Part shown: positions 1 to 432 of the stretch, piece after piece | How the letters are laid out: each line of letters starts with the position of its first letter | Numbering within the stretch: position 1 is the first letter of the stretch | From: Escherichia phage ECO95 1-6-1 | Strand: one strand, 5' to 3' | DNA length: 3,608 nt | Sequence record: OR845311.1 | Translations under genes and position numbers: made by a program | Notes under the pieces: generated by a model | The model's input: the letters and a program-made list of their open reading frames with translations, nothing else | Databases searched by the model: none | Told to the model about the DNA's origin: nothing

Positions 1-105
1 AGCCTGACTTGTTTGAAATCCATAGACGCAAAGGGCAAAGATAGCCCAGTGCAAAGCAGTATTAAGTACGCCTATCGAAACGTACTTTATAAATAATTTT
101 ATCAT
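1..105 (-). CDS. gtrA: GtrA-family bactoprenol-linked glucose translocase (flippase), N-terminal 35 codons only; gene continues beyond the window start
   Basis: Reverse-complement of 1..105 translates from an ATG at 105..103 as MIKLFIKYVSIGVLNTALHWAIFALCVYGFQTSQA with no stop before the window edge. This matches the recalled N-terminus of phage GtrA proteins (MLKLFAKYTSIGVLNTLIHWVVF...). An in-frame stop lies upstream at 141..139, so 105 is the first ATG. Low GC fits horizontally acquired gtr operons. The ORF is missing from the supplied track only because it is shorter than the track cutoff inside the window. Confidence 0.7.
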   Translation of the reverse strand, partial: MIKLFIKYVSIGVLNTALHWAIFALCVYGFQTSQA

Positions 106-330
106 TATAGCAATCAAGAAGTTGTAATTCAGCGAAGTCTACCAGACAAAACTGAGAGGATCATTCCTGAACAGCAGATTTTATGTAAGCAGGGCGAAGT
201 TAAAGTAAAAAATAGCGTTAGTTTTCCAATATACATATATGCAATATTTGCAGCGCAAAGTGATTACATTTTCATCGGAAATAGCGCGCGAAAAGGGACT
301 AATCACGTTGCGCTGAAAATAAATATCCTC
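106..330 (-). promoter_or_regulatory. AT-rich upstream/leader region of the gtrA-like gene; promoter not pinpointed
   Basis: About 37% GC by direct count over 1..330, against GC-rich flanking tail genes. Lies directly upstream (on the minus strand) of the gtrA start. Contains one GATC (159..162). No convincing -35/-10 pair could be fixed by eye. Confidence 0.3.
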
Positions 331-341
331 CAGCAATTTGC
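331..341. repeat. Direct repeat copy 1 (CAGCAATTTGC)
   Basis: Exact 11-nt match to 419..429, read directly from the sequence. Confidence 0.8.
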
Positions 342-419
342 CCGGTGGCGCTTTTGCGCTTACCGGGCCGGTGTTTATGCACCTTTTGCAGGCTGGATAA
401 GGCGAAGCCACCATCCAGC
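340..419. repeat. REP/BIME-like pair of palindromic units (two hairpins) immediately downstream of the gpV stop
   Basis: Hairpin 1: GCCCGGT (340..346) pairs with ACCGGGC (362..368), with an inner GCGC-TTTT-GCGC stem-loop. Hairpin 2: GCTGGAT (392..398) pairs with ATCCAGC (413..419), with an inner GGC/GCC stem. The GGATAAGGCG motif resembles enterobacterial REP elements. No U-run directly follows either stem on the minus strand, so it is not a canonical intrinsic terminator. Confidence 0.5.
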
Positions 420-429
420 AGCAATTTGC
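419..429. repeat. Direct repeat copy 2 (CAGCAATTTGC)
   Basis: Exact 11-nt match to 331..341. Ends 3 nt before the gpV stop codon (433..435). Confidence 0.8.
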
Positions 430-432
430 AGG

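Follow-up and report, generated by a model that had tools for sequence, protein, structure and literature searches.

Is a short open frame at the edge of a phage DNA sequence the beginning of a gtrA gene, and if it is, to which operon does it belong and what may that operon do? The question is raised by a stretch of 3,608 nucleotides (sequence record OR845311.1, Escherichia phage ECO95 1-6-1), here called the window, in which a 35-codon reading frame runs off position 1 on the minus strand. An earlier note, made from the nucleotide sequence, had read this frame as the start of a gtrA-like O-antigen glucosylation gene that is attached as cargo to a tail operon.

The minus-strand translation of positions 1–105 is MIKLFIKYVSIGVLNTALHWAIFALCVYGFQTSQA. 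It is stop-free and agrees exactly with the GtrA-like sequence quoted in that note. An alignment count shows 24 of the 35 residues to be identical to P22 GtrA. The block of about 37% GC that had been described around the frame is present: GC content is 0.385 over positions 1–200 and 0.365 over positions 101–300, versus 0.55–0.63 across the tail genes; it is about 36.9% in 106–330/336 versus 56.9% in 433–3608. The search proposed for the 35 aa fragment gave a divided result. It matches the GtrA family profile (Pfam GtrA_DPMS_TM), but the match is weak (E-value = 0.0018, 18.9 bits) and falls under the cutoff of 26.1 bits. Taken alone the fragment is a lead and not proof, and the proof comes from the extension described below. 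A frame left open by chance at the edge of the window, with no gene behind it, would agree with this sub-threshold score, and also with the finding that neither a Shine-Dalgarno sequence ahead of the ATG nor a consensus promoter is evident for the 35-codon frame.

The DNA past window position 1 was read from other records, chiefly OR850955 (termed L002, from a serovar Kentucky host), which has 100% identity to window positions 1–635; window position 1 corresponds to L002 position 3549. A Salmonella Infantis SARB27 contig displays 96.5% identity to the window over its full length, and a megablast search with the entire window gave no match in complete E. coli genomes. The element is of Salmonella type. 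The same continuation past position 1 is found in every Salmonella locus that spans the junction.

In L002 the gtrA frame is complete at 120 aa, and it is followed on the same strand by gtrB (309 aa) and gtrC (515 aa). The arrangement is that of gtrABC, i.e. gtrA, then a GT2-type gtrB, then a gtrC encoding a polytopic membrane protein, and the next gene after gtrC is a gp25/gpW baseplate gene. The earlier note had proposed this extension, and had named a short ORF, or the lack of gtrB and gtrC behind it, as grounds for giving up the gtrA reading. Because gtrB and gtrC come after a full-length gtrA, the extension contigs offer no such grounds. The 35 aa fragment is identical to residues 1–35 of the 120 aa protein, this protein has full-length GtrA family matches and a 69%–71% identity to experimentally studied GtrA proteins, and gtrB and gtrC come after gtrA in all extending loci. 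The extension contigs refute the chance frame, whose probability is next to nil.

The three proteins were compared with known families. The 120 aa GtrA matches PF04138 with 56 bits (cutoff 26.1) over profile positions 1–117 of 117, and PHROG 2224 (“GtrA-like O-antigen conversion”) with an E-value of 1.3e-58. Its full-length identity is 69.2% to GtrA of P22 and 70%–71% to those of SfI, SfII and SfIV. A Kyte-Doolittle scan, which is crude and was used with a strict threshold, shows two hydrophobic segments. GtrB is a GT2 enzyme (PF00535, E-value = 1e-31; the PHROG GtrB family is also matched) with 80% identity to P22 GtrB. It also matches PDB 5EKP, deposited as Synechocystis glycosyltransferase sll0501, with an E-value of 7e-90; in the literature this protein goes under the name GtrB. 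GtrC matches Pfam DUF6056 (E-value = 4e-62) and has about 8–10 hydrophobic segments. Among characterised GtrC proteins it is closest to that of phage epsilon34, with an identity of 31.5% over 81% of the protein. PDB sequence searches gave no solved relative for GtrA or GtrC. Coordinates are collected in Table 1.

Table 1. Features of the window and of its continuation in L002 (OR850955)
Feature	Position	Strand	Remarks
gtrA 5′ end, 35 codons	1–105	minus	ATG at 105–103; frame runs off position 1
Cassette-specific gtrA upstream region	106–336	minus	36.9% GC
Inverted repeat	245–321		22-nt arms at 245–266 and 300–321; 91% complementary; 33-nt loop
Direct repeat, left copy, 52 nt	337–388		L002 3885–3936
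Backbone spacer after V	389–432		second REP-type hairpin (REP2) at 392–419; present in gtr-less contig L050
Baseplate assembly/spike protein V	433–1155	minus	240 aa; equivalent of LT2 STM4207
gpD-like baseplate hub/late control D protein	1165–2208	minus	347 aa
Tail protein X	2196–2405	minus	69 aa
gpU-like tail protein	2405–3358	minus	317 aa; GpU domain at residues 6–123, then long helical C-terminal part
Tape measure protein gene, 3′ end	3358–3608	minus	frame open at right window edge
gtrA, complete	L002 3291–3653	same as gtrB and gtrC	120 aa
gtrB	L002 2365–3294	same	309 aa; 4-nt overlap with gtrA
gtrC	L002 807–2354	same	515 aa; 10 nt after gtrB
Direct repeat, right copy	L002 724–775		beyond window position 1

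All real genes of the window are on the minus strand, and U, X, D and V are backed by Pfam, NCBIfam and PHROG matches. The Infantis contig displays the wider order: Mor, lysis-type genes, sheath, tube, tape measure, U, X, D, V, gtrA-gtrB-gtrC, W, J, I and tail fibre. The gtr operon had been placed right after the tail genes; its actual position is between the baseplate genes V and W, and W, J, I and the tail fibre gene continue downstream of it. The Infantis element (L001 positions 4397–23167, equivalents of STM4198–4219) is located between lysC and an acetyltransferase-like gene. It has a Mor-type activator, holin/SLT-type lysis genes and a complete contractile tail with fibre, and no head, transposase, integrase or repressor genes are annotated in the Infantis record. 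Judged by the modules that make up an intact prophage (head, replication/integration, regulatory), the element is not one. Its layout resembles that of tailocin loci. A literature search for a described Salmonella tailocin at the STM4198–4219 locus yielded nothing relevant.

The V protein is longer than the part shared widely: its more distant relatives align over about 142 residues only. The extra C-terminal part displays repeated V-x-V/N-V motifs and ends in NSNHHSH, a terminus that may resemble the iron-binding HxH apex found in the gpV spike of P2.

The V–W junction was compared in other species, and 24 loci encoding V relatives were fetched from their genomes. W comes directly after V in nearly all non-Salmonella loci that extend past V, and gtr genes never do. 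Dryocola, Superficieibacter and Phytobacter, with V proteins of 77%–83% identity, all show this adjacency. One locus that departs from it is that of Mixta mediterraneensis (L014), where the region is rearranged and W and J are about 3 kb further on, on the opposite strand. In three close relatives (L004, L006 and L007) the V–W spacer has a hairpin of the terminator type, and between this hairpin and W there is a conserved motif; the terminator was confirmed by a scan in L004 only. A terminator at this position indicates that V–W is a boundary between two transcription units. In Salmonella the spacer is recognisable downstream of gtrC, with half of the terminator stem gone, and no terminator was detected there. 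The cassette is a small example of cargo lodged where one transcription unit ends and the next begins, within a baseplate module.

Other small repeats are seen in this spacer in relatives, i.e. an ERIC-like element in L003 (positions 8745–9002) and a REP-like hairpin in L005, both found by eye. Not only the cassette but also short repeats seem to land in the V–W spacer.

The boundaries of the cassette are marked by a direct repeat. Two copies of 52 nt, 90% identical and 3161 bp apart, bracket gtrABC. Within the repeat, the first ~33 nt fold into a REP-type hairpin (positions 340–368). This hairpin is dispersed in other Salmonella, E. coli and Klebsiella DNA, and the full 52 nt are found only at the two cassette flanks. 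A blastn search of positions 1–432 against plasmids matched only the REP part.

A scan of IMG/VR for the Salmonella-type spacer upstream of W yielded one contig that has no gtr genes (L050). Its V and W are 97.5% and 100% identical, respectively, and the order is V, the REP2 hairpin, a single hybrid repeat and the W spacer. Since L050 is without gtr genes and has one hybrid repeat, the cassette is a discrete block that is either present or absent. L050 may be either an empty site or a product of recombination between the repeats. An insertion starting directly after the V stop codon was considered and is ruled out by L050, which shows REP2 and one copy of the repeat to be parts of the backbone. 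Positions 1–336 of the window are cassette and positions 389–432 are backbone, so that the span 1–432 is composite: gtrA codons at 1–105, cassette upstream DNA at 106–336, a repeat copy at 337–388 and backbone spacer at 389–432.

The cassette block has a size of about 3.16 kb and a GC content of about 43%. Measured from the V stop codon to the renewed start of the spacer sequence that non-Salmonella relatives also have, the interval is 3262 bp with 42.9% GC, versus 56.9% for the tail genes. It has what defines a moron, i.e. a discrete insertion between genes that are adjacent in related phages, with a deviant base composition. The suggestion that gtrA belongs to cargo is borne out in this form: the low-GC block is horizontally acquired and is carried on a defective phage element. 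The 52-nt REP-containing repeats provide a simple PCR marker for gain or loss of the cassette.

The operon itself is not new. Window positions 1–105 are the gtrA start of the published Salmonella locus 4/GtrC family IV operon, and the finding is already known. The Infantis record cross-references gtrA, gtrB and gtrC to LT2 STM4206, STM4205 and STM4204, which lie between STM4207 (V) and STM4203 (W-like), and GtrA, GtrB and GtrC are 99%–100% identical among the Salmonella loci. The GtrC proteins have been sorted into ten families, and four loci have been defined, with family IV alone at locus 4; the operon is also called “gtr STM_II” in S. Typhimurium LT2 (Davies et al. 2013, PMC3688519). Defective P2-like prophages with gtrABC, serovar Kentucky included, were described earlier (Villafane et al. 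2008, PMC2629481). As the operon is already catalogued, recognition of gtrA in the window is correct but ordinary and adds nothing new. We found no mention in these two papers of the 52-nt repeats, the single-repeat gtr-less allele or the loss of the V–W terminator. STM4206 is listed in an sRNAscanner table merely as a predicted sRNA target.

An O-antigen modification with a change of serotype, as the earlier note expected, has been presumed for family IV. The published data do not bear this out. Family IV is present in serogroups B, C1 and C2, and the LPS ladder of neither Typhimurium nor Infantis shifted, even with expression from the constitutive pTac promoter; no activity was assigned (Davies et al. 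2013, PMC3688519). A literature search for family IV or STM4204–4206 showed no functional assignment later than that study.

The V–gtrA spacer (positions 106–432, 327 nt) is non-coding. It displays three strong hairpins (z = -5.0 versus shuffles), the strongest of which is the inverted repeat at 245–321. This inverted repeat is kept in all Salmonella loci and has no other match in the phage collection. A 77 aa open reading frame at positions 181–414 on the minus strand, annotated as a hypothetical protein in Infantis, was considered and set aside: it shares DNA with the REP hairpins, no protein family matches it, and in both Infantis and L027 its frame is lost to a 1-nt indel. It is unlikely to be a gene.

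Only one GATC (positions 159–162) is found in the 327 nt. The Dam/OxyR signature usual for other Salmonella gtr operons, i.e. four GATC sites in two pairs over OxyR half-sites, is absent upstream of gtrA, and a Dam/OxyR phase-variable operon is rejected because of the single GATC. This agrees with the published survey, in which all family IV members are without the phase-variation signature (Davies et al. 2013, PMC3688519).

A strict scan of window positions 1–600 showed neither a consensus sigma-70 promoter nor an intrinsic terminator, and the same type of scan of the gtrC–W spacer gave nothing. A relaxed scan shows a weak promoter candidate, with a -35 sequence TTTAAC (positions 204–199) and a -10 sequence TAAAAT (positions 183–178). 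It also shows a perfect extended -10, TGCTATAAT, at positions 112–104 across the gtrA start codon (TATAATG). Because this element overlaps the ATG, it cannot serve gtrA in the usual way. A transcript begun there would miss the gtrA start. A blastn search of window positions 1–335 against phages displayed no similarity to other gtr regulatory regions, and an Rfam search of the window with a permissive threshold gave no credible match. Expression is most likely not phase-variable, and may arise from a promoter in 106–336, by transcription running on out of the V operon, or by both. Such read-through out of the late tail operon would be possible because there appears to be no intrinsic terminator after V.

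The absence of an LPS shift raises the question of whether the operon is inert cargo, that is, intact in sequence, with no acceptor or activity today, and decaying together with the defective tail cluster. The negative result was obtained with the native or a constitutive promoter and in two serogroups, and one family IV gtrC, in Choleraesuis, has a premature stop (Davies et al. 2013, PMC3688519). Decayed variants are also present among the contigs. L034 (positions 5450–8201) has a truncated tape measure gene (425 aa) fused to codon 4 of gtrC, by a deletion that removes U, X, D, V, gtrA and gtrB. L028 (positions 1–2425) and L030 (IMGVR_UViG_2654587985) show integrase fragments and a different gtrA (47% identical) upstream of a family IV gtrC; the gtrB in between, of 285 aa, has an internal deletion and is joined to the family IV gtrC. 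This arrangement suggests that two gtr loci recombined inside gtrB; in family II, an internal deletion of gtrB is reported to be conserved (Davies et al. 2013, PMC3688519). L050, in turn, lost the cassette or never had it.

Against decay stands the conservation of the genes. All three gtr open reading frames are intact in at least six independent contigs, and GtrC is 99%–100% conserved across serovars of different O groups. When the Salmonella alleles are compared, gtrB has a dN/dS of 0.17 and gtrC one of 0.16; the value for gtrA is 0.30, on very few changes. The gtrB and gtrC values, drawn from several loci though from a small sample, speak for purifying selection and against inert cargo. Inert cargo is thereby an unlikely account of the operon. 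Among the Salmonella loci dS of the gtr genes is 0.008–0.022 versus 0.068–0.080 for V, D and J, i.e. 3–8 times lower. This suggests that the cassette spread later than the backbone or independently of it, or recurrently.

The function of a maintained operon can be modelled on the Gtr pathway of Shigella SfX/SfII/SfV and P22 and on the Synechocystis GtrB. By analogy with that pathway, GtrB would make undecaprenyl-phosphate-glucose from UDP-glucose at the cytoplasmic face. GtrA, as a small four-helix protein, would by homology move undecaprenyl-phosphate-glucose across the inner membrane, and the polytopic GtrC would transfer the glucose to a periplasm-facing glycan. We have high confidence in this predicted three-step GtrB-GtrA-GtrC glucose pathway for the cassette. 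Taken jointly, the best explanation of the locus is a gtrA of the family IV operon, carried as a V–W cassette in a head-less BcepMu/P2-type tail cluster next to lysC and acting by the Gtr pathway; as a whole this is very probably correct.

For the acceptor, an O-antigen sugar may be assumed as a default guess, because the closest characterised GtrC, that of epsilon34, belongs to an operon held responsible for O:34 conversion; STM0557 offers a like analogy. The alternative is that family IV GtrC glucosylates a glycan other than the O-antigen (LPS core, enterobacterial common antigen or another), possibly the receptor of its host tail. Family IV occurs in serogroups whose O units differ chemically (B, C1, C2) and gave no ladder shift (PMC3688519), as might be expected of such an enzyme; its operon is also embedded in a myovirus tail/fibre module, in contrast to the gtr operons of P22 and epsilon34, which are beside int/att. 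However, the nearest characterised relatives, epsilon34 and STM0557, act on O-antigen galactose, and a small or sub-stoichiometric O-antigen change would escape the gel assay too. An acceptor outside the O-antigen is rather improbable, and it is the sole route to real novelty at this locus. A more specific form, in which GtrC glucosylates the receptor (e.g. LPS core) of its own BcepMu-type tail and the cassette provides self-protection for a tailocin-like cluster, is very unlikely. The locus offers a defined target for LPS/ECA mass spectrometry, family IV being the widespread Salmonella gtr type without an assigned acceptor.

Four known systems can be placed beside the locus. The gtrABC operons of P22 and of Shigella SfX, SfII and SfV share with the cassette the gene order and the gtrA-gtrB overlap, and both are low-GC cargo on an element derived from a temperate phage. 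They differ in gtrC: P22 GtrC belongs to Pfam Glucos_trans_II whereas the GtrC here belongs to DUF6056, with no significant BLASTP match between them. The P22 operon is located between attP/int and the tailspike gene and has an annotated promoter and terminator, whereas the cassette is inside a baseplate module. P22-type gtr operons have the Dam/OxyR phase switch, as given by Broadbent 2010, in contrast to the one GATC upstream here.

The epsilon34 GtrC is closer, since both proteins belong to DUF6056 and share the partial identity given above. The epsilon34 gtr operon is, like family IV, without a phase-variation signature (Davies et al. 2013, PMC3688519). It is carried on an intact P22-like podovirus next to int/att, and is held responsible for O:34 serotype conversion, whereas no such serological effect has been reported for family IV.

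Among sequenced phages, the tail cluster is closest to the BcepMu-type phages (Bcepmuvirus) PhiKM of E. coli and BcepMu of Burkholderia, which display the same order of tape measure, U, X, D, V, W, J, I and fibre. V identity is 49% to PhiKM and 39% to BcepMu. The Mor-type activator at the end of the Salmonella cluster is counted as a further likeness. W is next to V in the two phages, with about 54 nt in between, whereas the Salmonella element holds the gtr block there; unlike them, it is without head, transposase and replication genes. The closest system of all is the family IV operon of LT2 (STM4204–4206), which has the same genes, on the same chromosomal element and with the same neighbours.
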